DNA of 35,279 bases from Craspedostauros australis (Eukaryota). The notes under the pieces were generated by a model that searched no databases, had not been told where the DNA came from, and saw only the letters and a list, made by a program, of their open reading frames with translations. The stretch covers positions 1-35,279 of the forward strand of contig JALAGF010002264.1 in assembly GCA_030167865.1 (NCBI GenBank). Reading direction: 5' to 3'. A program made the translations under genes and the position numbers. Below, one piece after another: positions 2,835-30,778 of this stretch (within the stretch, counting starts at the first letter, position 1; each line of letters opens with the position of its first letter).

Positions 2835-3236
2835 ATGCTCCATCATCTCACTTTGTTTATCACGTTCTTCTGCGTCGTTGGCACGGCAATGTGCCTCACG
2901 CAGCATGCAGCACCTGACAGATCTCGCCGCGCCATCATCGCAACCGCATTCGTTGGCGCCACCAATCTGGCAATTCCTGCATCGGCCTACGAGAGACGTG
3001 ATGTCGGTGATGACGGTCGGTCGGCAGCTACAGCAGCCATGAACACGCAGGCCTTTGAAACGAACAACAGATTGGAAAAGAGCGGTTTCAAGCTGGACAC
3101 GCGTGAGGAGGAGACGGCGAAGCTGAGCTCTGCGCTGTCATCCTTTTCGTACGACTCTTCCTCGGCCAAGACGAAGTCTGGCAGCAAGTGGGCAACTGCA
3201 ACGACGGAGAAGGCCAATGCCTCGTCAAAGAAGTGA
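2835..3236 (+). CDS. Small putative thylakoid-lumen protein (signal peptide + twin-arginine targeting), unknown function
   Basis: ATG at 2835 in an ACAATG context. Hydrophobic signal MLHHLTLFITFFCVVGTAMC, then SRR + hydrophobic stretch + ASA cleavage-like motif (SRRAIIATAFVGATNLAIPASA|YERRD). Confidence 0.7.
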   Translation: MLHHLTLFITFFCVVGTAMCLTQHAAPDRSRRAIIATAFVGATNLAIPASAYERRDVGDDGRSAATAAMNTQAFETNNRLEKSGFKLDTREEETAKLSSALSSFSYDSSSAKTKSGSKWATATTEKANASSKK

Positions 3237-8461: not shown

Positions 8462-9980
8462 GGTGCAATGTGGAATGTGGTATGGCAGCGTACGGTAGCG
8501 TAGCGTTGGCCCTCTCTGCTGCTGCTGCTATTGTGTGTATACCTTGTGTGTATTGCTTGCTACTGCGCGTATTGGTTGGCTACTTCGCACGTTCTGGTAT
8601 CCTTCGAAGGCGATTCGGCTGTTTGAATCTGCGCTCGCGATGAACGGAAATTGCTGGATGTTGCTGATGTTCGCGTTCGTGACGAAATGTTGATGAATAA
8701 AGGATGTGTGCGTGTGTGTGTGCGTGCGTCTGTGTGTGCAGGGGCTGGAGAGGCTCAAGAGATCTGTGAAGCGGGATGTAGTACACGTCAGCTAGGATTC
8801 GACCGGAGCCGGAGCGAGAGAAATGGGCTTGGCACGGAAGTGAAGAAAGCAATCCACGCCTGACGATGTGATCGCGTACGATCCGTCCCGGAGGACTTCG
8901 ACCGTATGGTAGGTTCGTTGCGGATATGTCCACAACAGACAGGGCTCTCTTCTTTCGAATGCAATACGAGCAGAGGATTGCCTAATGCTCGACTGCGCGT
9001 ATCGCAGCTCTGATGACGGTTGTAAGTCTCCAGTGCGTGTCGTGTTGAGTGAGGATACGAATGTGCGTTTCTGTTTGATGTGTGTGGGAACTTTGCGTCG
9101 CTCTGTTCGCAAATTCGCAGTTGCCTTCGCAGTTGCGCGAGTATGGTACGCACTGCGTGGTGGTCGAGTCTTGAGTCTGCGGGAGGACGACGCAGGAACA
9201 CCACAATGAGAGTTGTTGCTGTGTGCCACCCGGTTTGGCCCACCCTTGCTTTATTTGGTCTGATTTGTAGATTCACAGGCTCTTGGAGGTCTGCACTTGA
9301 TCTGTTCGTTGTTACAGATGCTCGGAGTGGCTGTTGTCTTTGCTGTACTTGTTTTTACTGTACTTGTGGTTGTTGTTGCTGCTGTTGTTGTTGTTGTTCA
9401 GAACAAGGAGCAATGCTCTGATGTTTGTCCTGTTGATGATGATGATGGAGGTGGAGGTGGAGAAAGAGATCTGATTGAAGTTTTGTGTGGAAATGAAGAA
9501 CAAATTTGTCACTTTTTGATTCATGCAGACCGAGACTGCCACGAGGAATGTTTCGGAGATGTACTCTGCTATTGTGTTCTGCAGTTGCTTCACGATCGAT
9601 GTCGACGTCGGTGTCGATGATGCGATGCGATGTGATGCGATGGCTTCTGCTCTATTCGTATAATACGTAATTGTATTCTATTAGCACTCTATGGATGAAT
9701 GATGGGACAGATGGCTGCGTTGATTTGATGGGTTGATTGTTGCTCTTGCTTCCCCTTTGTGATGTTGTGCAATTGCTTTCTTTTATTTGTAGTAGTAGAG
9801 CAGACCAACTCTCCTCGGTCAAAAGGACTCGGAGCACTTCGACGCTTCAATGCCCCAGCGCTCATTCGTTGCTCTGGGCAGTTCGTTGGTTGGTTCCTTC
9901 GTGTCGGCCTTTGTTTCTCCCCTCTCTGCGTTCAGTCTCTCTGGGCTGCTTCTCGCGTTTGCTTCCTTGTACCAACGCGA

Positions 9981-10000
9981 CAGAACAGAACAGAACAGAA
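9981..10000 (+). repeat. (CAGAA)4 microsatellite
   Basis: cagaacagaacagaacagaa read directly. Confidence 0.9.
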
Positions 10001-10941
10001 AGGGGGCGGAGCGCTTCCACTCGTGATGTGGCTGGGAGTTCCGTGATGGCACGAGGCGTTTGTTCGCGTACTCTCTACCTACGATGTTGATGTTGTCGCC
10101 TTTGTTTGAACGAGCTTCACCAAATCTCGCTCCTCTTCGTTGATGCGTCTCCACCAAAGAGGAGAAAACGCCACGACAACCGCCATGATGACGACACAGA
10201 ATTCTCAGCCTGATTCGTTTGTCTCCACGTTTGGCCTCGCGCGCAGAAGAAAATCGCGAAAAAGAACAATACGTTGAACGCTAGTTAAGTTCCTGATGTC
10301 AACTTTTCGCCCAAAACCGAACTTCATGGATACGATTCAACCCAATCAAATAGCGCAAATTGCGTTGTCATCGCGGAAAGGGAACTTCATGAATGGACAG
10401 TCACGGATTCGAGGTTTGATTTTCGAAACGAAGACACCCACGATTGGATCATTCGTGGGATACAATCACGATTGACAATATCGAATTGGCTCATGACACG
10501 GAATGCAAAGAAGACGGTTTGATCGAAACTCAAGAAGAACAACGGCAAACTTCGCGAGTGGAACTACCCATGCAGGTGGTAGTCTTCATGCAAGTATGGG
10601 GAGGATAGAACATATCCTTGCCATTGCACGAACAGAGGAGGAGAGAATGGTACTCGCAGTACTATATGATGTCCAAGCCAAGTGCTCTGCTCTATTGCAC
10701 ATTGTGGCTAAAGAACGTGTGTTGGAATGGATTCATTCTTGTCCAACGATGTCGCGGCGCCATCAGCTCTTTTTCTGTCCATGGTCAGCTTTGTCCTTGT
10801 GCATGGCATGACATGGCATGATGAACATGAACATGAACTATTCTACTCCGCTCAAGCACAATATATATCGTATAGTACGCATCTCTCATCTACAACCAGT
10901 CTATCCATTCCCGGCCTTGTCTATCTCCATGCCTCCTGCGA

Positions 10942-11673
10942 TCACTGCTGCTTCTCCTCCGTCTCCTTCTTGGCAGGCCACTTCTTGAAACGTATGCGAT
11001 GGTTGCAATATCCAAAGGGATTCTTGGCGAGATACTGCTGATGATCCTCCCGTGCCTGAGTGAATTTGCGCATGCGCGCAACCTCCGTCAGCACGTGCTT
11101 CGTGTGGAACGTGCGAATCTGCTTCGTGTCCAGCAATTCCTGCATCTCCGATTTCACGCGCTGGGCGATCTCCTTCTGCCGATCGTCACTGAAGAAGATG
11201 TAGCTCGCATATTGGAATCCGCGGTCGTTGCCTTGCCGATTCAACGTCGTCGGGTCATGGAAGGAGAAGAAGAAGCGGAGCAGCTCCTCGAAGTGCTGCT
11301 CGGGGTCCTTCAGTTCGATGTACAGAACCTCCACATGATCCGAATCTCCGCGGCACACCTGTTCGTACGTGGGATTTCTGTATTTTGGTGTTTCGTACGG
11401 TGACATGAACCCCACCTTGGCGTTCAGGATGGATTTGGGAAAACGCTTCTGGAAGTCCTTCTTGACGAACTTCTCCGTGCCCCAGTAACAACCCGCTCCC
11501 AACGCAAGGTGGTTGGACATCGTCGATCCAGCATTGGCATCGCTTGCGGTTGGTGGCTCTTGCATGGCCCTTGCCTGCTCCTGTTGTTGCTGCTGATTTT
11601 CTTCTTGCTGGTGCTTGATCTGCGGTGGCTGTGCCACCGTTTGATCGGCTGTGGTGGACTGTGTGCATCCCAT
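10942..11673 (-). CDS. msrA: Peptide methionine sulfoxide reductase A with N-terminal MGCTQS acylation motif
   Basis: Catalytic motif GAGCYWG, plus NPTYEQVC, HVEVL, HDPTTLNRQGNDRGFQYASYIF and EDHQQYLAKNPFGYCNH. Single exon. Confidence 0.95.
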   Translation of the reverse strand: MGCTQSTTADQTVAQPPQIKHQQEENQQQQQEQARAMQEPPTASDANAGSTMSNHLALGAGCYWGTEKFVKKDFQKRFPKSILNAKVGFMSPYETPKYRNPTYEQVCRGDSDHVEVLYIELKDPEQHFEELLRFFFSFHDPTTLNRQGNDRGFQYASYIFFSDDRQKEIAQRVKSEMQELLDTKQIRTFHTKHVLTEVARMRKFTQAREDHQQYLAKNPFGYCNHRIRFKKWPAKKETEEKQQ

Positions 11674-12249: not shown

Positions 12250-14080
12250 ATGAAGAACCGCAACAGTATGAGGAGAGGACAGAGTTGGGCAATCCGAGGA
12301 CCAGCACTGCTGGTATTGGTGCTACCGCTGCTGCTGGCTACGACTGTGTTCGAGAGTGTCAACGCGTTCTCAGCGACGCGGCTGTCCTCTCTGACCGATC
12401 GTGGCACCAGCTTGCGGAACCAGCAAGATTCGAGGCAACCATTGCGCCATTTCTACGACGAAAGCGCTAGGTGGAAGTGCCATGACAAAAGCCAAGCTGC
12501 GTCACAACGCAGATCATCTCAAATGCGGATGCTGCCATTGGATATGATACCCACCGAGCTCATCAGCTCCGCGTCTTCGCTCAGCCTCAACATCGACAGA
12601 GAAACGGCGGAAGCCCTGGCCGGGCCATTCTTCGGCGCTTCCCTGCTGCCGTACCTAGCGTTTCTCTACTTCTTGGATGTGGAAGAAAATGACTGCCCCA
12701 AGGGAGTGACGGTCGGGTTTGCCACCTGCCTGCTCTTCGTCTTCCTCACCATCCCAGCCGCGATAGCTGCCCAGGTGTTGTACGGCGTGTCATTGGCCGA
12801 TTCGGATTGGCTGCATGGTTCTGCCGAATCCTTGCTCACCATGACCAATCTGGTGACCGTGGTTGCATTTCGGCAAGCCTTGGAGGCCAAGGAGAAAGAT
12901 GCGCCCATGCCAAGCACCGCGCAGAGCTACATGCCCATGATCCTCTTGGTGGCTGTGTTGACGGTAGCGGCGGGTATCACAGCAGCCGTGCCAGCGTTGG
13001 CGGACCCGACGGTGCATACTCCGTATCTCGGCGGATTCATGGACCTCCCGTTCACATTTGATGCTTTGGGGGCCACGACAGAGCCTGAGAATGCATTGAC
13101 GATCGCAACGTAAGTTATCACGAGTGATGCAAGTGCACATATGTACGTAGTCGTACAGTATGCACTGGTGCTAATACGAGCTATGGATGATGCCCTCATG
13201 CTTCATGTATTGTCTGTGTCATGACGAATACGATGTGCAGCATTCGTCTCTTTCGATGCCCCAGAGATGGCTCACACAACATACTGTATTTCATTTTTTC
13301 ATTCTTCACGTCCTGCTGTGGCTAATTGTATCGTCCCACGCTATCTCAATCCAATGCAATGCACAATAACCGCCGTCGTTGGCACCATCACTCCCACCAC
13401 AACAATGCATGACATCGTCACTGCACTTCCTGCGACAACCTACTGCATACTCGTATGATAGATGGATCATCCATGTGTCGTCGTTGGTAGAGTTCTTGGT
13501 TGCGATGGGATTCGCATGGAGATGGGCAGATGTTGTGAACAATCCAACATGGAAAGGTCTGACGTGGGGATTGCTGCCGTTGCACAGCTCAGGCATCACA
13601 GCTTGCACCTACCATCTCTTCTTCAATCGAATCCCCATCCTTGTTCCGCTGCAGGCGTTGCTGACTTGCATCGGCAACACGACCGCGGCCATCGCGACCT
13701 ACAGAATTGCACGATCCAACGGATGGGAGCCTCCCCTCAACGACGATCTGAAGGCACTCGTTGACAAGACAACGAACGCCCCGCTCGCAGTCACGCAGAC
13801 ACAGACAGCTACAGAGAAGGCGGCCGAATCGGAATCGCTGGTTGGATTCGAGGATCTCGGAGATGCTCTGGCTGATGACAATGACTACACATTCCTGATC
13901 AAGCTGTTCGTCGGATGTGCGGTGGGGTCGTACGCCATCAAGTACGGCGAGCTCTTCGTCGACTTTTCGTTCGAGGCCAATGTTTGGCTTGGGTTGTCTG
14001 TCGTGGCTGTCCCTTCCGTCCTGAACGCCTTCAAGTGGTACAAGCGAAGTCAAGACCCAAGCTTTGAAGGTTGGTTTTGA
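12250..14080 (+). CDS. Plastid-targeted membrane protein, DUF3593 + DUF2499 (Ycf49-like) fusion; 2 exons
   Basis: Exons 12250 (or 12268)-13109 and 13462-14080; intron 13110-13461 GTAAGT...TAG, phase 2, restores EPENALTIATWIIHVSSLVEF. DUF3593-type motifs SLLPYLAFLYFL and LADSDWLHGSAESLLT; DUF2499-type WKGLTWGLLPLHSSGITACTYHLFFN. Signal peptide ends VNA|F. Confidence 0.85.
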
Positions 14081-14424: not shown

Positions 14425-16157
14425 CTACATCGTCTGTATCGACTCTGTGAGTTGGTTGAGTTCGGAGCAAAAGTTGAACAGAGACTTGTCCCAGTTGGCC
14501 TGCTCCGTGTTGGGATCTTCGAACTCCAAAAAGCCCGCGACTTGGTCGATAGAACCTCGCAGGGATCCGTCCATGATCATGTTCGCTGCAATCTTTTCGG
14601 CCTTGTCAGTCCCCACGGCAAGGATCCGACCAAGGTCAGTGAAACGGATGGAATCGTATACCTTGCTGACAGCGATCATGTTGTGCTCCACAACGCTGCG
14701 CTCCAGGATAGTCAGACCATCGCCCATGACTGCTTTCTGGTGTGCCTGCAAAGTGGATTCGAACTTGGTAAGCTCCGCCTTGCCGATGATCTGCTGCTTG
14801 TACATTTTCTTCAAGATTGTCGAGTGCGTCTCCAGGTTCTCGATTGTGTCCAGCTCGGAAAGTCTGCTATCGTTGTATATCTGTTGTACGAGCATGTGCG
14901 AGTATTTGTCAGAAGAAATGCGAATGCGTGGACGTGTGTATGAATATGTTGACGCGCGTACGTGGATTGGAGTGAAAAACAAACGACGGATCATTAGGAC
15001 GGTGAAATAAAGCAGTCGCATGAGAAGTGGTGAGGTATGGCATGTACAATGCAACAAGTGACATCTGCAACCCACACTACACTGTTGCAACGAACAACAC
15101 TGCAATGCCATGTATTGTATACTCACGTATCCCAAAACTCGATGTCGCTGCGGTCCGCTCGGCGCGAGTATGGCGGTCGTCGCTGCCTTTCCAAGCATGG
15201 TCAGGAGATCTTCGGCGCGGATGACATCGTCAGAGCTTTGACTGAGCTCGTGGTATCGGGAGGCGGCGCTGAGGAACTTGCGGTTTGCATCAAGCACGCG
15301 TGCGTAGGTTGACTTGAAACGCAGAATTAGCGTGACATGCTGCTCTGGGTCCTTGATGCCCTCGATCACGCTGCCAGCCTTCGTCACGGCTGAGTCGGAC
15401 TCCACGATTTCATCATCCTCCAAAAAGCATTCCGCAATCTTCACGTACACTGTGAGATGCATCGTCGCAGATGGTTGCCAAATTGTCATCAAATATGATA
15501 TGCACATGGATGAATGCAAGAAAGGGGATTGATGTGAGTATGATTGTGGCTGCTTCTGTAGAACGGACAAGGATGGACCTGGTTTCAATGCTCTACTCCA
15601 CGCATTTGTTCGCATAGATCCGGCATGGCCAGGTCTACTTTGAGGCCTTGCGAATGCGTATCTCTCTCTCTGGAGAGACTGCGTGTTTCCAATTCACATG
15701 CGAATGTCATCCATATGCACATGATTGGTTCATTGGAAGTTGACGTTTGAGACTTACCATCGCACTTGGTGGCGGCAGATGTGTAGTAGACGCTCTCCGG
15801 ATCGTCCTCCATTCTGGTTCCCGACAAAATCCGTGCCGCCTCCGAGAATTCGGAATCCTCGTTGACCTTGTAATCGAAGATCATCTGGCGCAGCTTGCTG
15901 TCGGCGGCACCCTCCACCGTGCTTGGCAAATGACCCAAAGCGTCGATCATGATCTTCATCATCTGCTCATCGCCGAATGCGGCAGGCAGGAAGTTGGGAT
16001 GGGACACGGCGCACTTGACGAAATGCGCCGCCAGACTGCGTTGCTCTCCCTGCCCGATGCTGTTCCAGGAATCAGGCTGCGCCGAGAACACTTCGTGGAT
16101 CCCGCCGTAGTTCTTGCTCTGGATGGAGCTGTCGATCTTCTCCTTCAGTCTCTCCAT
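14425..16157 (-). CDS. CSN4: COP9 signalosome complex subunit 4 (PCI domain); 3 exons
   Basis: Exons 16157-15758, 15449-15127, 14880-14425; introns 15757-15450 and 15126-14881, both GT-AG. Conserved CSN4 motifs YVKIAECFLEDDE, YARVLDANRKFLSAASRYHELS, ILAPSGPQRHRVLG, LQAHQKA..DGLTILERSVVEHNM, GSIDQVAG. Confidence 0.93.
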
Positions 16158-17126
16158 CTTGTCGTCTCGCTCGTTGCGGCAAAGTGTGTGGCTCCGAGTA
16201 TTGCGATGATCTGCGGCTTTGTGAGACAGCTCCTCTTGTGTCCCTTTCTCTTGTTCTTGTGATGATTGCTTCCTTCTGTGAGCTTCGTGTGGTCTCTCTG
16301 TGCGTTCTCGCTGGGATGGAGAGAGTTGGTCGCAAGTCTCGCTGTTGTGTGGATTGTTGTCGTGGACTTCGTGTCGTGCCGTGTTGGGCTTGGATACCAC
16401 GGTGAAGAAGATCACACACGAAAAGGGAGAAATGGACTCAATGGATTATTCCATTTGTCTACATTCGTTTACGTAGACTCTGTATCACAAAATGAGCCCA
16501 TGGAAGTCGGTAAGATTCCCATTCCTGGAGTATTGGCACGTACTCGTATTCGTCCTCGTGCTAATATGTCCAAGCCTTGCAATAGCAGTTATCAAGCGAG
16601 ATCTTCACACATGCATCACTGAGATTGTATCGAGTATGCACTGCTATGCTTGTGGATGTGTCGTTGTGGAGTCAATCGGCTGCCATTGCTTTCCAATGTG
16701 CACAAGAAATACAGCTATTCATGGTCGTATCACGCAATACTCCACACGATGACTGAAGGGTTTCCAAATCACCTTCCAAGTCAGATGTGTTTCCAGTTGC
16801 TGAGATGGTGAGAATGGAGACCCAACCAATGGGAAGCGTGACGGTGTCAATAGAATATTCATAGAAATAAATAGAGCACTAATAATAGTTGTTAAGAATA
16901 GCAAATGCTTGACTTGTTCGTTGCATGTGTATGTGTGTTGTGTTCCAGTTGTCAGTCGTTTGTTCTTCAGTAGCGGACCAACTTCATGGAATATCCCAAC
17001 TCACTTCGTCCCTTGATTGTCGCCTTGCCTCTGGGAACCTGCGATACGTCGCTGGATCTGTGGGAACGCTCAGGTAGACCTGCGCATGCGGTGTATTGTG
17101 CCAATGCGAACGAACTTGCAGGGCGT

Positions 17127-17486
17127 TTATATGCGACAGTTGGCACAACCGCACGATGGTCCGTGCTGAGAGGAGCACGAAGCGCAGTCGCAGTTCGAGG
17201 CGTGGACTCGGACGCTGCAGTCGTCGCATGCGCAGTCCTCTCCATGAGACGACTGGCAGGTGGCGCACGAACACTGGGATCCGTGGGCCGAGGCGCATTT
17301 GGAGCATCCGCATCCTGCCGCGTGCGAGGATGCCACTCCGAAGACATCGCTGCCGGTGCTGATCGCCTTCAACGGCGTGGTCGTCCTTCGGGCGACGAAG
17401 GCAGGGGCAGTCTGCGAGAAGGCGGATGTCTGGACCACGGTGCCTGCGATGCAGAAGACTGTTGCGAAAGAAACCTTGCCGAACAT
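17127..17486 (-). CDS. 119-aa plastid-targeted Cys/His-rich metallothionein-like protein with five HxxxCxCxxC repeats
   Basis: ATG at 17486, TAA at 17129-17127. Signal peptide ends QTSA|FSQTAPAF, then transit-like RRTTTPLKA. Repeats: HAAGCGCSKC, HGSQCSCATC, HGEDCACDDC, HASNCDCASC, HGPSCGCANC. Confidence 0.85.
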   Translation of the reverse strand: MFGKVSFATVFCIAGTVVQTSAFSQTAPAFVARRTTTPLKAISTGSDVFGVASSHAAGCGCSKCASAHGSQCSCATCQSSHGEDCACDDCSVRVHASNCDCASCSSQHGPSCGCANCRI

Positions 17487-17676
17487 GATGGATAGGGTAG
17501 AGCGTAAATGGAAGAGAGGAGGTGTACAGTGTAGATTCGTTGGATCGGGTTGTGATGCTATTTCTGCAGAGATGTTGTGGTTGTGATGTTGGAGTTGCGA
17601 TCTTTGGTATTGGTACAAAGGAAGGGGAACAAAGGAGACGATCGTGGATAGAGCGGATGATTCAGCGGCTCATGTG

Positions 17677-17697: not shown

Positions 17698-18356
17698 GAT
17701 GTCATCACCACCCATTGTTGGCATGGACTGGATCGGTCGGGTGATGGATGGTGGCGTCACGATTGCGCTTACACAACAACGTGAACTGCCCAACAATCGG
17801 AACCACCACAAACGCGGAAGATCACACAGCACGCAATTGTCACGCGTCGGATTGTGGTGGCGCCACAGATTCACACATCACCTCATTGACGTCATCGTTC
17901 CTTGACAAAGGCCTTTACATGTACTTCAAACAGTTGATCAATATGACTGCACTTCGTTGTCGAATAACTCGACTGTTTTGACACCTTCAAACGGTTCGAA
18001 TCTCTCCGTTTTGTTCGTGGCTTTTCGGCGTTCTCTTGTTGGGCGATTCGAAAGTCATTTGTCGCCATCAACAACAACAGAAGAACTCATGAAGTAAGGG
18101 GGAACACCAGACAGGAAGCACAAAAGCACAAGAGAGACGAGATCGCCGTTGTTGTCGCCAGGAAGAGGTCGAGACGGAGAGGTCAAAGTGGAAGAGCACA
18201 TCAAGCACCCTTCAAGGGCAACCACCATTAGAATACGAGTGATTATACACCACAATCGCAAAGGCTTACTCTCGGTAGGAAGCAATCAGAACGGAACAAG
18301 GAAACGGATAGAAGCTAAGCGCAGCGCAATCGAGTACTCTACCACAATACATCAAG

Positions 18357-19274
18357 ATGGCAGCAGGGATTGCACACGGAGCAGACATGGATGGCAGAAG
18401 GCACCATGGGAGTTCACCTTCTGTGAGCATCGACATGGAATCGATCCGCAACTTTTTCACAGCCATGTGAGTGCATGTATGGGGAGCCTCGGATTTGATT
18501 TCAGCTTGTGGGGTGCCAGCTTGTTGCTGCGTACCGTTACCAACCGATGCAACTCCTCTGACACTCTCATCTGCTTGCTTCACCGGCTTTTTTGGGTGCA
18601 TTCCTGGACTCCACCATATGCCCGTTTGTCTATTTGCTTGTTTGCGCGCGCTCAAACGTCGAACTGGGCAACACAGCGTCACCGACACGAGATCCAAGAT
18701 CAGCGTCGAGACCTTGCGTCCATTGCCAGTGTTCCTGGGCGTGTCAACGCAGGGTTTCTGCTTCGCGCAGGATGCCTTCGCACCACCGACCACAAAACTG
18801 GACAAGACGTCGTTCGAGAAGGTGAAGACGAGGCTGAAGCTGAATTTTGCATACTTCGTCTCCAACTACGCGTTGGTGGCGGCAGGGGTGGCCCTTGTGG
18901 TTGCATTGATGCACCCGGGCATGCTGATTTCGTTGGGGACGCTGTGGGGATTGTGGGAGCTCCATGGGTACCTCATATCGAACGAGCTCGTCTTCTTCGG
19001 TCGCAACATCGGATCATTGGTATCCATTAATCATCGCTCGAACTTCCTCATCGCATTGACTGCGGCGGTCGTGGCGTGGAAATGCCTGTGGCCAGTCGCG
19101 ACGTTTGTCTCGATCAGTTGCTTCATCATTGTGTTGCACGCGATCATGCGAGATCCAAAGCAGATGAACATGGCGCAGGGCTTCCAACGGAACGGGCAGC
19201 ACGACGAAGAATACGACTCCAGCGGATCCGAGGTGATCGTCGATCGTCCCACGTCGAAGGCGGACATCATTTGA
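18357..19274 (+). CDS. PRA1: PRA1 (prenylated Rab acceptor) family protein; 2 exons
   Basis: Exons 18357-18466 and 18677-19274; intron 18467-18676 GTGAGT...CAG, phase 2. Motifs LRPLPVFLG and RLKLNFAYFVSNY, two long hydrophobic hairpins, IIVLHAIMR. Confidence 0.88.
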
Positions 19275-25257: not shown

Positions 25258-26946
25258 TTACTCTTCGTACTTCTTGAAGAGAATGGCGGCGTTGTGTCCG
25301 CCGAATCCCAAATTCGTGCTCATGGCACCGTTCACCTCCATCGTGCGCTTCTCGTTTGGCACGTAGTCCAGGTCGCACTCCGGATCTGGAGTGTCGTAGT
25401 TTATCGTGGGAGGCACAACGCCCTCCTTGATCGCCTTGACGGCGACGATGGCCTCGAGGCCACCGGCGGCACCCAGGGTATGCCCCGTCACGCACTTGGT
25501 CGACGACACGACGAAGTCTCCGTCCTTCTCCGTGGCGTGGTCGCCGAAGACAGTCTTGATGGCCATGGTCTCGAATTTGTCATTGTACGCCGTCGATGTG
25601 CCGTGCGCGTTGATGTAGTTGATCTCCTCCTTCTCCATTCCGCTCATGCCGACGGCCATCTCCATGGCGGCCGCCAATCCGCGTCCTCCCGGCGCCGGCG
25701 TGGTGATGTGATGGGCATCGCAGGTGGCACCGTACCCGACGAGCTCGCAGTAAATTTCGGCATCGCGCTTCTTGGCGGATTCCAGGCTCTCGAGCAGGAT
25801 GACGCCAGCGCCTTCTCCCATGATGAAACCACCGCGGTCGGAATCGAAGGGACGCGATCCGGACTTGGGATCGTCGTTGAATTTGGAGGCCATGGCCTTC
25901 ATGGCGCAGAATCCGGCGAAGGTGAGGGGCGTGATGGTGGCCTCGGTGCCGCCCGCAAGCATCTGATCGGCGTGTCCGTCCTGGATCATTCCCATGGCCT
26001 CGCCGATGGCGTGGCTGCCGCTGGCGCAGGCCGAGACGATGCCGTAGTTTGGTCCCTGGCATCCGCATTCGATGCCAATGACACCTGATGCCGTGTTTCC
26101 AAGCAGAGCTGGGATTGTGAATGGGGAGACCTGCATTTACGCGGATTCATGCGTGTGTTTGGTGGACGATTTTGTTCACGATTTTCACCGTGTCGTCAAC
26201 AAAACCAATGGACATTGGTATGAATGGGACATCACATGTGAGCCATACTAATGCATATGTCCATTGCAAATTTATTGCAGGGGAAGAACGAAGCTCATGC
26301 ATCAAATGGAAGAACCAAGCGGACACCGGAGCATGAATCAAATGACCAATGCATCAAATACACACAGCAAACAAACAAACAAACAAGCGGCAAGGAACGG
26401 ACGCACCTTGGGACGCTCTGGCTTCTTGTGAAGCTTGAGGGTCTCACGCTCGAAGGTCTCGACACCACCGAACGCCGATCCCACCATGACACCGATGCGA
26501 TCCGGATTGTTCAAGGTCTCGGGCGTATCGCCCACGCCGGCATCCTGCAATGCCTGACGCGCGGCAGCGACCGCGAAGTGGGTGTACCGGTCGTTGGACT
26601 TGGCGTTCTTGGGATTGACGAAGAAGTCCTTGGCAACGAACATGTCATCGGGCACCTCGCTGGCGATGGTGCACGGGTATTTGGAGGCATCGAATCGCTG
26701 CACCGTGTCGATGCTGGATTGGCCGTCGACGCAGGCCTGGAAGAATTGATCGTGTCCGATGCCGCAGCCGCTGATGACGCCCATGCCTGTCACGACGACG
26801 CGCTTGCTGTCATCGGCGGCGTCGCTGCTCATGCGCAGCGTTGTGGCGGATTGTCTGGTAGCTGGAGAAGCATTTGGTGAGAATGCGGCGGCATTATCTG
26901 TCACCAGAAGGAGGAAACCTCCAAGGGCTGCGCACGATATCTTCAT
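25258..26946 (-). CDS. fabF: Plastid beta-ketoacyl-ACP synthase (KAS I/II, FabB/F type); 2 exons
   Basis: Exons 26946-26407 and 26130-25258; intron 26406-26131 GTGCGT...[12 protein letters not shown]; catalytic triad motifs [14 protein letters not shown] and GHTLGAAGG; terminal GFGGHNA. Presequence ends NAAA|FSP. Confidence 0.95.
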
Positions 26947-28113: not shown

Positions 28114-30778
28114 ATGGCAAACATGAAGCTCGCAGTCCTCGCCACTTCCTTGCTGGCGGCACCCAGCTGCCATGCCTTCACGCCTTCCTCCTCCTTTGTG
28201 TCGAAGCCGTTGGTCCCCACCACCAGCACCAGCGCCGTCAACAGGAACGCCGCGTTTGCTCGTTTCCACAACAGGCAAGCGCACATCTCGCAGGCGCAGA
28301 GCATCGCCACGCAGCTCGGTGTGGGCGCCAACTTTGATGCAGAGGAGGTCATCACATTGGGTTCGGAATGCGTCATCACACCAGAGGGATTCGGCTTTTC
28401 CACCACCATGGAACGCGTCCTCAAGCAATCCAAGCGACAGGATGGATTCTACAAGGCCAAGGCCTCCGACCGCGTCGTCGATGTCATGGAGAACATCATG
28501 ACGGGATCCGTGGACGTGGCGCTCGTCTTTGAGGATGACGATGATTCCAAGCTCATTGGAATCTTCACGGAGTCGGATTACATCAACGTGAGTTTGATTT
28601 GTATTGGATCTGCTGATTATTGGCGTGCTGTGTCAAAGATGACGGAAAAACACTCTCTCGTCAACTCTGATAGGTGGCCTCATTGACTAGCCTCCCTGCG
28701 TTCTTCTCAACATCACTTGCTCAAAATGCATCTCAACTTTTCGTCTTGGCATATCATCAAATGGATGAATGTTGGTGCAAATGCCATACTCGCACCATGT
28801 TTGCGCGCTCTCCTCTCATGGCATTCATCCATCAATGCTATTGAATAAATGCGATGCACTAAAATGCGTACGTTAACACATCGGCGTGGACTATGCACTA
28901 TGCACTATGCACCGTGCACGCGCACACGCACAGTTCTCCACCCAACGCATCAAGGAGACGAACACTGAAGAGGAGTCAGCCAGCTTCCTCTCGTCGCCAG
29001 TCAGGGATTACACAACCTCAGCCGACGACATCGTCGCTCTGTCCTTGACCGAAACAGCCAACGTCGCCATCGCATCCATGAAGATCGCCGATGTGCGACA
29101 CGTCGTTGTGGCGGACAAGGTCACCGACAGAAAGCTGGGGTTCGGCAGCCAAGTCAAGGGCGTCATCAGCATGCAGGATGTCATGTCGTTGATCCAGAAG
29201 GACGAGCGCCTCAGCCTTGCCACGCTCGAGAAGAAGTACCCAGGCATTTCAAACCCGGTGGACCTCCTGCGAGAGGAAATGAAATCGGAGGCCAACCTGC
29301 TGGCCAAGGAACCAGAGACTGCCAAGAATGACATCATCAAGTTCGGAACCGCGGCCCTCGGTGTGGCCAGCATCGCGGCGTTCTTCTCGCAAGCAGACTG
29401 GTTGCACGCTCATTCTGACATCGTCATGATCGGAATCTTCGTGCTGGGATACATCGGAATCATCTTCGAGGAAGTTTTTGAGTTCAACAAGGCGGCAGTG
29501 GCGCTGTTGATGAGCACGGGCATGTGGGTCACATACGCCGACTACTACCAGAGCACCGGGGTCGCATCCCCCGGAGTGCTCACGGAGCTCGGGGAGCAGC
29601 TCTCGGAGGTCTCCGACATCTGCTTCTTCCTGCTCGCGGCCTCCACCATCGTGGAAGTCGTCGACGCCCATCAAGGTTTCAAGGTCGTCACCAATCAGAT
29701 CAAGACAACGTCCAAGAAGCAGCTGTTCTGGGTCATCGGTTTCCTGACCTTCTTCCTTTCCGCCATCCTCAACAACCTCACTGTCACCATCGTCATGTGC
29801 TCCCTCCTCCGCAAACTCGTGCCGCAGGAGGATGACAGGAAGCTGTTCGGCGCCATGGTCGTCGTCGCCGCCAACGCTGGAGGAGTGTGGACGCCAATCG
29901 GAGACGTTACCACCACTATGCTATGGATCAACAACCAGCTCTCCACCATCCCAACGGTCACTCAGCTGTTCGTCCCGTCCATCGTATGCCTCGTCGCATC
30001 CCTCGCCTTCCTCGTCAACCAAGTCGAGGAGGACAACTCCCTGGCCGAGTCCACCCTACCAGAACCAACAGAGCTTGCCACCAGAGGAAAGCTGGTGTTC
30101 TGGTCCGGCATTGCGTGTCTTCTCGCCGTTCCCGTGTTTGCCGAGCTCACTGGTCTGCCACCGTACCTTGCCATGCTCACTGGACTTGGTGCCATGTGGA
30201 CATTGACCGACATCATCCACATGGGTGAAGACGGTGAGGAGAGCATGAAGGTCCCGGCCGCCCTCTCCAAGCTGGATACTTCCGGAATCCTCTTCTTCCT
30301 GGGAATCCTCATGAGCATCGGCGTGCTGGACAAGAGCGGTCTGCTGAAGGAACTCGCCGTCTTCCTCAGCAACAATCTGCCAAGCCTCGACATCATCGCG
30401 ACCGTGATCGGCATCGCTTCGGCGCTCATCGACAATGTCCCGCTCGTCGCTGCCACCATGGGCATGTACGACATCAGCGAATACGCCACCGACGACAGAC
30501 TCTGGCAGCTCATCGCGCTGTGCGCCGGAACCGGTGGATCCATCCTGGTCATCGGATCCGCCAGCGGTGTCGCCCTCATGGGCCTCGAGAAGGTGGACTT
30601 CCTGTGGTACGCCAAGAAGGTCAGCATCGGCGCTGCTGTTGGATATTTTGCGGGAATTGCCACCTACCTGGCACAGAACGCACTGCTGTCCGGAAATCTC
30701 CTGAATGGCATCCTTCCGCAGGCTGCCGTCGCCGTAGACATGGCGCAGACGATAACCACCACCGGAGTAGTGCTGTAA
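28114..30778 (+). CDS. nhaD: Plastid-targeted NhaD-type Na+/H+ antiporter (NHD1-like) with N-terminal CBS pair; 2 exons
   Basis: Exons 28114-28587 and 28934-30778; intron 28588-28933 GTGAGT...CAG, phase 0. NhaD motifs IIFEEVFEFNKAAVALL, IVEVVDAHQGF, AANAGGVWTPIGDVTTTMLW, SALIDNVPLVAA, CAGTGGSILVIGSASGV. CBS-like KLIGIFTESDY and VRHVVV..VKGVISMQDV. Presequence ends SCHA|FTP. Confidence 0.92.

Follow-up and report, generated by a model that had tools for sequence, protein, structure and literature searches.

We analysed a 35,279-nucleotide stretch of DNA from Craspedostauros australis (contig JALAGF010002264.1; its full length is referred to here as the window). It holds a small open reading frame (ORF), the product of which, P0002, carries five tandem copies of the ligand pattern H-x3-C-x-C-x2-C, referred to here as His–Cys3 units (Table 1). 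The units start at residues 55, 68, 81, 95 and 108, with periods of 13, 13, 14 and 13 residues and linkers of 3–4 residues, and a six-frame reading of the window contains no other match to the pattern. A motif scan of the 119-residue ORF bears out the 15 cysteines and 5 histidines that the original prediction had counted in five repeats; one further cysteine lies in the signal peptide. Three or more units arose in 0 of 200,000 residue shuffles in each of three shuffle sets, and a two-unit DNA pattern gave 3 matches in the real sequence and 0 in 100 shuffles. The five-unit reading frame is thereby confirmed as real.

The repeats had been described as diverged in DNA with invariant His and Cys positions. 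This holds: DNA identity from repeat to repeat is 50–63% (mean, 58%), while the ligand residue is kept in 20 of 20 ligand codons, 4 of which vary synonymously, and any two units have 0–2 of their 6 non-ligand residues in common. The description of the mature chain as almost entirely repeats stands as to the five units but not as to their extent, as they occupy 63 of the 79 predicted mature residues, behind a leader of 14. An overlapping ORF of 169 amino acids on the plus strand (16986–17495) was rejected because the relatives described below keep the minus-strand frame.

Table 1 Features of the miniprotein locus and two further genes of the same genome (window coordinates unless another contig is named)
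Feature	Position	Strand	Basis or remark
Precursor ORF (P0002)	17127..17486	minus	119 aa plus stop; ORF list, relatives from phmmer
Predicted signal peptide, residues 1–22, ending T-S-A	17421..17486	minus	Hydropathy; small-x-A|F kept in family
Predicted transit peptide, residues 23–40 (F at +1, S/T-rich, basic, no acid)	17367..17420	minus	Composition; cut consensus (PMC3774753) and +1 rule (PMC4329603)
Leader of predicted mature chain, residues 41–54	17325..17366	minus	Closest relatives have a similar short leader
His–Cys3 unit 1, residues 55–64	17295..17324	minus	Motif scan
His–Cys3 unit 2, residues 68–77	17256..17285	minus	Motif scan
His–Cys3 unit 3, residues 81–90, acidic	17217..17246	minus	Motif scan
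His–Cys3 unit 4, residues 95–104	17175..17204	minus	Motif scan
His–Cys3 unit 5, residues 108–117	17136..17165	minus	Motif scan; stop two residues on
Stretch under one run X1 contig	16858..17606	minus	~120 nt before ATG, ORF and ~270 nt past stop; intron-less
Small twin-arginine lumen-type protein, separate gene	2835..3236	plus	No Pfam match; no unit, versus 2–6 in the Tat signals of its relatives L038, L073 and L120
S1 gene of the same genome, L210 (contig G000:C4376)	~9000–11300	minus	bS1/PSRP-7-like by PDB hits; intron after signal peptide

Probable transcription of the locus

A single contig of sequencing run X1 spans the ORF and its flanks (Table 1) at a depth of 45.7, with zero differences and zero internal joints; the contigs do not give the strand, and the 5′ part of the stretch contains no upstream ATG. 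X1 is a single run from a single study, possibly of the source strain, and its RNA label is a guess; none of the runs listed for the locus is annotated as RNA. The same run splices out two neighbouring introns with canonical ends (15449–15758 and 18466–18677), and its coverage is absent at 16359–16769 and 17729–18139, on both sides of the miniprotein gene. Given these spliced neighbours and uncovered flanks, we read the gene as likely to be transcribed, without introns. A missing transcript had been named as grounds for abandoning the prediction; instead, a contig that is RNA-like, if the guessed label is right, spans the whole ORF. The locus had no match in runs X2 and X3. A cargo joined to P0002 by readthrough or splicing was rejected, as the contig continues beyond the stop without a splice and a separate contig covers the next gene.

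Divergent from the miniprotein gene is a spliced gene (18159–19274, plus strand; intron 18466–18677) under a much deeper X1 contig, and its intron is also covered by a contig of 197 nt. Three other genes of the window are likely to be plastid-targeted and contain no His–Cys3 unit; we take them to encode a 3-oxoacyl-ACP synthase-like protein (25258–26946, minus strand), a CBS/NhaD-like protein (28114–30778, plus strand) and a DUF-type membrane protein (12250–14080, plus strand).

Predicted plastid targeting

By hydropathy, P0002 has a hydrophobic stretch at about residues 7–18, followed by T-S-A|F at residues 20–23, in which the −3 and −1 residues fit a signal cut; together with the conservation of this site in the family, this agrees with the signal peptide ending in SA|F that had been proposed. 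F at +1 after the signal cut marks import into diatom plastids, under a rule that admits F, W, Y or L (PMC4329603), and the position is occupied by F23 in P0002. Residues 24–42 include 3 K/R, 0 D/E and 5 S/T. The stromal peptidase consensus, as given in an N-terminome study, has Leu at −2, hydroxylated residues upstream and Ala, Ser or Met after the cut (PMC3774753); P0002 has L39-K40|A41 at the end of its transit peptide, and we place the cut there on the basis of this consensus. P0002 resembles the ASAFAP-type presequences of these sources in its predicted signal peptide, F at +1, basic, acid-poor and S/T-rich transit peptide and Leu at −2. An earlier division into a transit peptide of about 19 residues and a mature chain of about 78 was right as to the S/T-rich, basic character of the former, but the cut moves to K40|A41, leaving a predicted mature chain (residues 41–119) of 79 amino acids and 7.7 kDa, with 19.0% Cys and 1.3% aromatic residues; the whole precursor has 13.4% Cys.

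Among 19 stand-alone members inspected by eye, the +1 residue is F in 14 and L in 2, is partly visible in 2 and is absent in 1; 12 of the 19 have an L-x|A/S/M/G/V site ahead of the first unit. We rejected a twin-arginine (Tat) signal for P0002, as the sequence after R33-R34 is Thr-rich and polar and lacks a hydrophobic stretch (windows starting at residues 25–40 have a hydropathy below 0.3) and the arginine pair is not kept in the closest relatives. We conclude that P0002 is probably targeted to the plastid (chloroplast), as had been predicted, a reading supported by the F that follows the predicted signal cut of 14 members out of the 19.

Alternatively, P0002 could be a secreted peptide, either disulfide-linked or metal-binding, that stays in the ER or the periplastid compartment or leaves the cell. 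A signal peptide alone would suffice for this, and three relatives (P0030, L017 and L076) look lumen-directed, so location varies within the family. We nevertheless regard such a location as quite improbable, given the conserved F at +1 and the basic, acid-free, S/T-rich stretch behind it. Furthermore, the three cysteines of a unit cannot pair within it, the histidine would be superfluous in a disulfide-linked peptide, and the remaining unit-bearing proteins, among them a green-algal one without a signal peptide, have the look of plastid proteins.

An unnamed family of stand-alone genes

An exhaustive phmmer search with P0002 returned 19 hits, 16 of which share its design; a repetitive artefact (P0003), a large protein in which the His/Cys repeats are laid out differently (P0017) and a Paulinella repeat protein (P0018) were set aside. 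The alignment of P0002 with 15 relatives has 14 invariant columns, every one of them Cys or His. Intact relatives show 29–50% identity, and stand-alone genes encode 3–7 units. Named members are Thalassiosira pseudonana g10488 (P0014) and Chaetoceros tenuissimus GFH58708.1 (P0030); most others are metagenome proteins. A word-indexed homology search found 0 matches with P0002 as single query and only 5 proteins with the alignment as query.

None of 16 family members matched a Pfam profile above the cut-off. One reached E 0.56 against PF12749 (Metallothio_Euk), for which P0002 itself gave E 1.4 (9.4 bits; cut-off, 22). A profile search of the PDB with the family found no chain at E 10, and the ESM Atlas returned no usable hit for P0002 or P0014, which speaks for neither novelty nor absence. 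These results agree with the initial statement that no characterised family was recognisable. A metal-free AlphaFold2 model of P0002 is of low confidence (pLDDT 51, pTM 0.20). Searches of the open-access literature, in which motif spellings vary, yielded no description of the family or of the presequence units, and the exact motif string occurred only in a paper on TRPC5 and its preprint. By these comparisons, P0002 belongs to an unnamed algal family that lies outside described ones. No paralogue was found in its own genome, where the three weak matches (L002, L003 and L220) lie outside the family; the same searches overlooked the one unit of the S1 gene described below, so other single-unit presequences may exist.

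Units in the presequence of a plastid S1 protein

The unit recurs in the presequence of a plastid protein with two S1 domains. From the best 120 of 370 orthologues we dropped 57, the models of which start near the mature part, and kept 63. The exact unit is present in 47 of the 63 and CxCxxC in 56, and 7 have neither. In 54 of the 56 orthologues with CxCxxC the last Cys lies 7–14 residues ahead of the maturation-site Met, and behind a conserved anchor there are 17 cysteines in 35,263 residues. Unit number ranges from 0 to 7. Acidic residues occupy 9 of 468 non-ligand positions in S1 units versus 43 of 606 in stand-alone units (Fisher p = 7.5e-5, for sequences that are not independent), as expected if only the S1 units must pass as transit peptide.

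The T. pseudonana orthologue (P0043; XP_002287255.1, JGI 21235, gene g10487) has F at +1 as residue 21 and three units at residues 46–81. In the N-terminome study, the dimethylated and acetylated N-terminal peptides of this protein begin at residue 90, its identifier appearing, within the accessible part, in Table S5 only (PMC3774753). This measured start lies behind all three units, which indicates that they are cut off. The S1 units are thus apparently removed with the transit peptide, although initiation at Met89 or internal proteolysis could also give a start at residue 90. A search of the N-terminome tables for six peptides, drawn from the stand-alone protein of T. pseudonana and from the transit peptide of its S1 protein, found none. 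The S1 transit peptide, at about 68 residues with conserved His–Cys3 units, differs from the ASAFAP-type transit peptides listed in the accessible part of the study, which are 12–42 amino acids long and for which that part mentions no metal motif (PMC3774753).

The S1 gene in the genome of P0002 has one unit, just before the maturation site, and its vicinity contains no other. Its best matches among the proteins compared are diatom-type proteins (44–54% identity), which fits a diatom origin of the window.

In the Thalassiosira oceanica group, S1 forms occur with and without a piece of 16–20 residues that carries the unit. Five matched pairs (P0077/P0087, P0167/P0165, P0085/P0168, P0173/P0171 and P0175/P0095) share strain-specific residues, and one pair is otherwise identical at 359 of 359 residues. 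The missing piece ends in Gln, the CAG codon of which could act as an alternative acceptor. In a further pair, P0067/P0089, one form lacks a degenerate unit. We infer that these forms reflect alternative splicing within the transit peptide. An intron acceptor directly before the unit was rejected as a general rule, as genomic S1 loci outside the Thalassiosirales have their likely acceptors about 60–70 nt upstream.

Stand-alone and S1 genes are neighbours in two genomes. On T. pseudonana contig4, the S1 gene g10487 (1963720–1965333, minus strand) and the stand-alone gene g10488 (1965512–1966354, plus strand) lie head-to-head with 178 bases between them, and L077 has a stand-alone gene of seven units in tail-to-tail arrangement with an S1 gene. 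This adjacency suggests that stand-alone genes originated by local duplication of the S1 presequence; in the genome of P0002, the two genes are on different contigs. The same adjacency would suit a neutral leftover, that is, a duplicated S1 presequence that is transcribed and the product of which is degraded like any transit peptide. We consider this very improbable: the ligand codons are conserved while all else diverges, intact relatives persist at 29–50% identity, and the stand-alone members have a conserved additional peptidase-like site before the units and have gained acidic residues.

A module in other plastid presequences

A scan of metagenomes with the two-unit DNA pattern matched at least 119 stretches, of which 30 were read as algal module genes (in some cases the same species twice) and 89 were not. 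Among the matches listed, the algal genes have five layouts: 13 stand-alone genes; 11 genes with units in the presequence of a two-S1-domain protein (PF00575); 3 Tat genes (L038, L073 and L120) for a small lumen-type protein, with 2–6 units in the twin-arginine signal, flanked by its hydrophobic stretch on one side and the A-x-A site on the other; 2 cargo-less Tat genes; and 1 gene for an LCIB/theta-CA (L100:1–540, minus strand), with two units in an N-terminal extension before PF18599 and no signal peptide, on a GC-rich contig that looks green-algal. The original prediction had suggested that the miniprotein possibly supplies metal to carbonic anhydrases; the three LCIB/theta-CA matches in the genome of P0002 contain no unit, although L100 does. 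The lumen-type gene of the window (Table 1) lies 14 kb from the miniprotein gene. None of the 13 viral and 74 prokaryotic pattern matches has an algal-type presequence, most being low-complexity or off-frame, and no cyanobacterial ancestor of the module was seen among the prokaryotic ones. Taken together, these layouts suggest that the His–Cys3 unit is a mobile module that elsewhere lies within the cleaved-off part of plastid presequences.

Some arrays depart from these patterns. In L017, L076 and P0030, stand-alone arrays follow a twin-arginine motif and are possibly lumen-directed. Two seven-unit arrays (L070:1120–2448 and L077:1054–1467) are broken by an internal Leu-x-Met/Tyr|Ser/Ala peptidase-like site, as if a block of unit and cleavage site had been duplicated, and processing could release two peptides from each. 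Bacterial proteins have 2–4 tandem H-x3-C-x-C-x2-C units in linkers, which are often very acidic (L136 and L162 from Leucobacter; similarly L142, L144 and L190 from Clostridia, and L043, L102 and L112), and are probably convergent with the algal ones; L142 resembles an Hsp90/HtpG linker. AT-rich contigs that resemble giant viruses (L028, L034 and L057/L006/L009) have 2–3 units inside larger proteins, and P0017 has many. Chlamydomonas LCIB may have a similar Cys spacing near its N terminus, which we treat as a lead only.

The position of the unit could also mean that it is a metal or redox switch in the presequence that, once folded round Zn or oxidised, slows translocation or cleavage of the cargo, with alternative splicing removing the switch and the stand-alone proteins acting in trans as decoys or sensors. 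Consistent with this are the narrow distance of 7–14 residues between the last unit and the maturation site in 54 of 56 S1 orthologues, the five matched S1 pairs with and without the unit, and the recurrence of the unit just ahead of the final cut in three unrelated cargos. However, S1 presequences have anywhere from 0 to 7 units and stand-alone genes have 3–7, and such variation and expansion point to capacity, not switching, as the selected trait. We think a switch unlikely.

The probable metal site

The ligand spacing of the units has published counterparts. The Zn-fingernail of VARP is a ten-residue, four-Cys domain (C-x3-C-x-C-x2-C) that holds one Zn and folds autonomously (PMC7539009). 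Residues 172–181 of TRPC5 read HXXXCXCXXC, where Zn is putative and the density was not unambiguously assigned, and a PHD site of UHRF1 with HXXXCXCXXC is cited as Zn-bound (PMC7683545). The units of P0002 share with the Zn-fingernail the ligand spacing 1-5-7-10, an unstructured setting and multiple copies. They differ in that the first ligand is His, not Cys, that positions 2–4 are mostly Gly, Ala or Ser, that the VPS29-binding His-Pro-Leu triplet is absent and that there are five tandem copies; there is no sign of common ancestry. The TRPC5 and UHRF1 motifs are identical to the algal unit, with His first, but each is a single site inside a large protein, and convergent rather than homologous. 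As the spacing is that of the Zn-fingernail and the TRPC site, one Zn per His–Cys3 unit is likely by analogy, in support of the zinc-type site of the original prediction. Small residues occupy 449 of 606 (74%) non-ligand unit positions and no hydrophobic face is conserved, so we read the units as metal holders, not docking sites.

An iron or Fe–S carrier has little probability in our view. The ligand set matches in kind: sets of three Cys and one His bind [2Fe-2S] clusters of the mitoNEET and IscR types, and most iron goes to the plastid. A CxCxxC motif is also noted in DUF971 of HCF101 (PMC7980591). Against this, the three closest precedents of the exact spacing are Zn sites, that of TRPC5 putatively. 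Ten residues are, moreover, very short for a [2Fe-2S] site.

P0002 and metallothioneins are alike in being small and Cys-rich, with few aromatic residues and with CxC and CxxC motifs, and in being probably unstructured when metal-free. The mature chain falls within the limits given for metallothioneins in a 2020 review (at most 300 amino acids, less than 10% aromatic residues and 15–35% Cys; PMC7216689). It lacks a family profile match at the cut-off (PF12749, above), and whereas classical metallothioneins lack targeting peptides and the class is described in the review as cytosolic (PMC7216689), P0002 has a predicted bipartite plastid presequence, the signal and transit-like peptides appear to be conserved in its family, and the unit also occurs inside the presequences of other proteins. 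The strict periodicity of the His–Cys3 units suggests separate single-metal sites, not metallothionein clusters. The review names a predicted metallothionein from one diatom only, T. pseudonana (XP_002296843; PMC7216689); the T. pseudonana relative of P0002, g10488, goes by a EukProt name. P0002 may work like a metallothionein, but as an organelle-targeted array of single-metal knuckles and not as a member of a described family.

Thiolates bind Cu(I), Cd and Hg tightly, and P0002 could be a plastid sink that detoxifies these metals, induced by stress and forming multi-metal thiolate clusters. Its composition is that of a metallothionein and the match to Metallothio_Euk, although weak (E 1.4), is in the same direction. 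However, each unit has one invariant His per three Cys, which is the usual set for Zn(II), whereas Cd and Cu(I) favour all-Cys sites, and a module carried by an S1 protein of ribosomal type is more suggestive of housekeeping supply than of stress induction. We judge a sink of this kind unlikely, and zinc remains our preferred metal.

Proposed function

We propose that P0002 is a stromal zinc buffer, to which we assign an even chance. The intron-less nuclear gene would be transcribed (with the RNA label of run X1 a guess), and the precursor would enter the ER, lose its signal peptide at A22|F23, enter the plastid and be cut by the stromal peptidase near K40|A41, yielding the 79-residue, 7.7-kDa chain. 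This chain would be disordered when metal-free, and each ten-residue unit would fold round one tetrahedral Zn(II). A chain would thus take up at most five Zn(II), arranged like beads on a string and not in a single metallothionein cluster. Zinc would be stored and released for plastid zinc proteins, and excess Cd or Cu would be taken up. P0002 would then be a version, with a gene of its own, of the module that other precursors (S1, the Tat lumen protein and LCIB/theta-CA) deliver in a presequence that is cut off, a location that makes the freed His–Cys3 peptide the likely working product in all forms. Counting against a zinc buffer, the module is dispensable in places: some S1 forms are unit-less, and, in the genome of P0002, the S1 protein has one unit and the lumen protein and LCIB/theta-CA have none.

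More broadly, algal plastids may gain a metal-binding peptide by a polyprotein route, of which the literature searched gives no description: conserved zinc knuckles in the cleavable presequences of plastid proteins that are abundant or require zinc would be freed by the stromal or thylakoid peptidase and then serve as zinc store or chaperone. Alternative splicing, as in the T. oceanica group, would set the dose together with stand-alone genes that arose from cargo-less duplication of the presequence. We put this forward tentatively, as a scheme that has somewhat less than an even chance of being correct.

Plastid carbonic anhydrases need zinc, a metal whose scarcity restricts diatom growth in some ocean regions. 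The family described here is, judged from sequence, a concrete candidate for a plastid zinc store, and its copies in the model diatom T. pseudonana (g10488, and S1 gene g10487 with product XP_002287255.1) make it directly testable. The S1 transit peptide challenges the view that such peptides are disposable tags without structure: its metal ligands are strongly conserved, published proteomics indicates that it is cut off, and it is apparently spliced in or out. If the polyprotein route is true, transit peptides would have a second life after cleavage.
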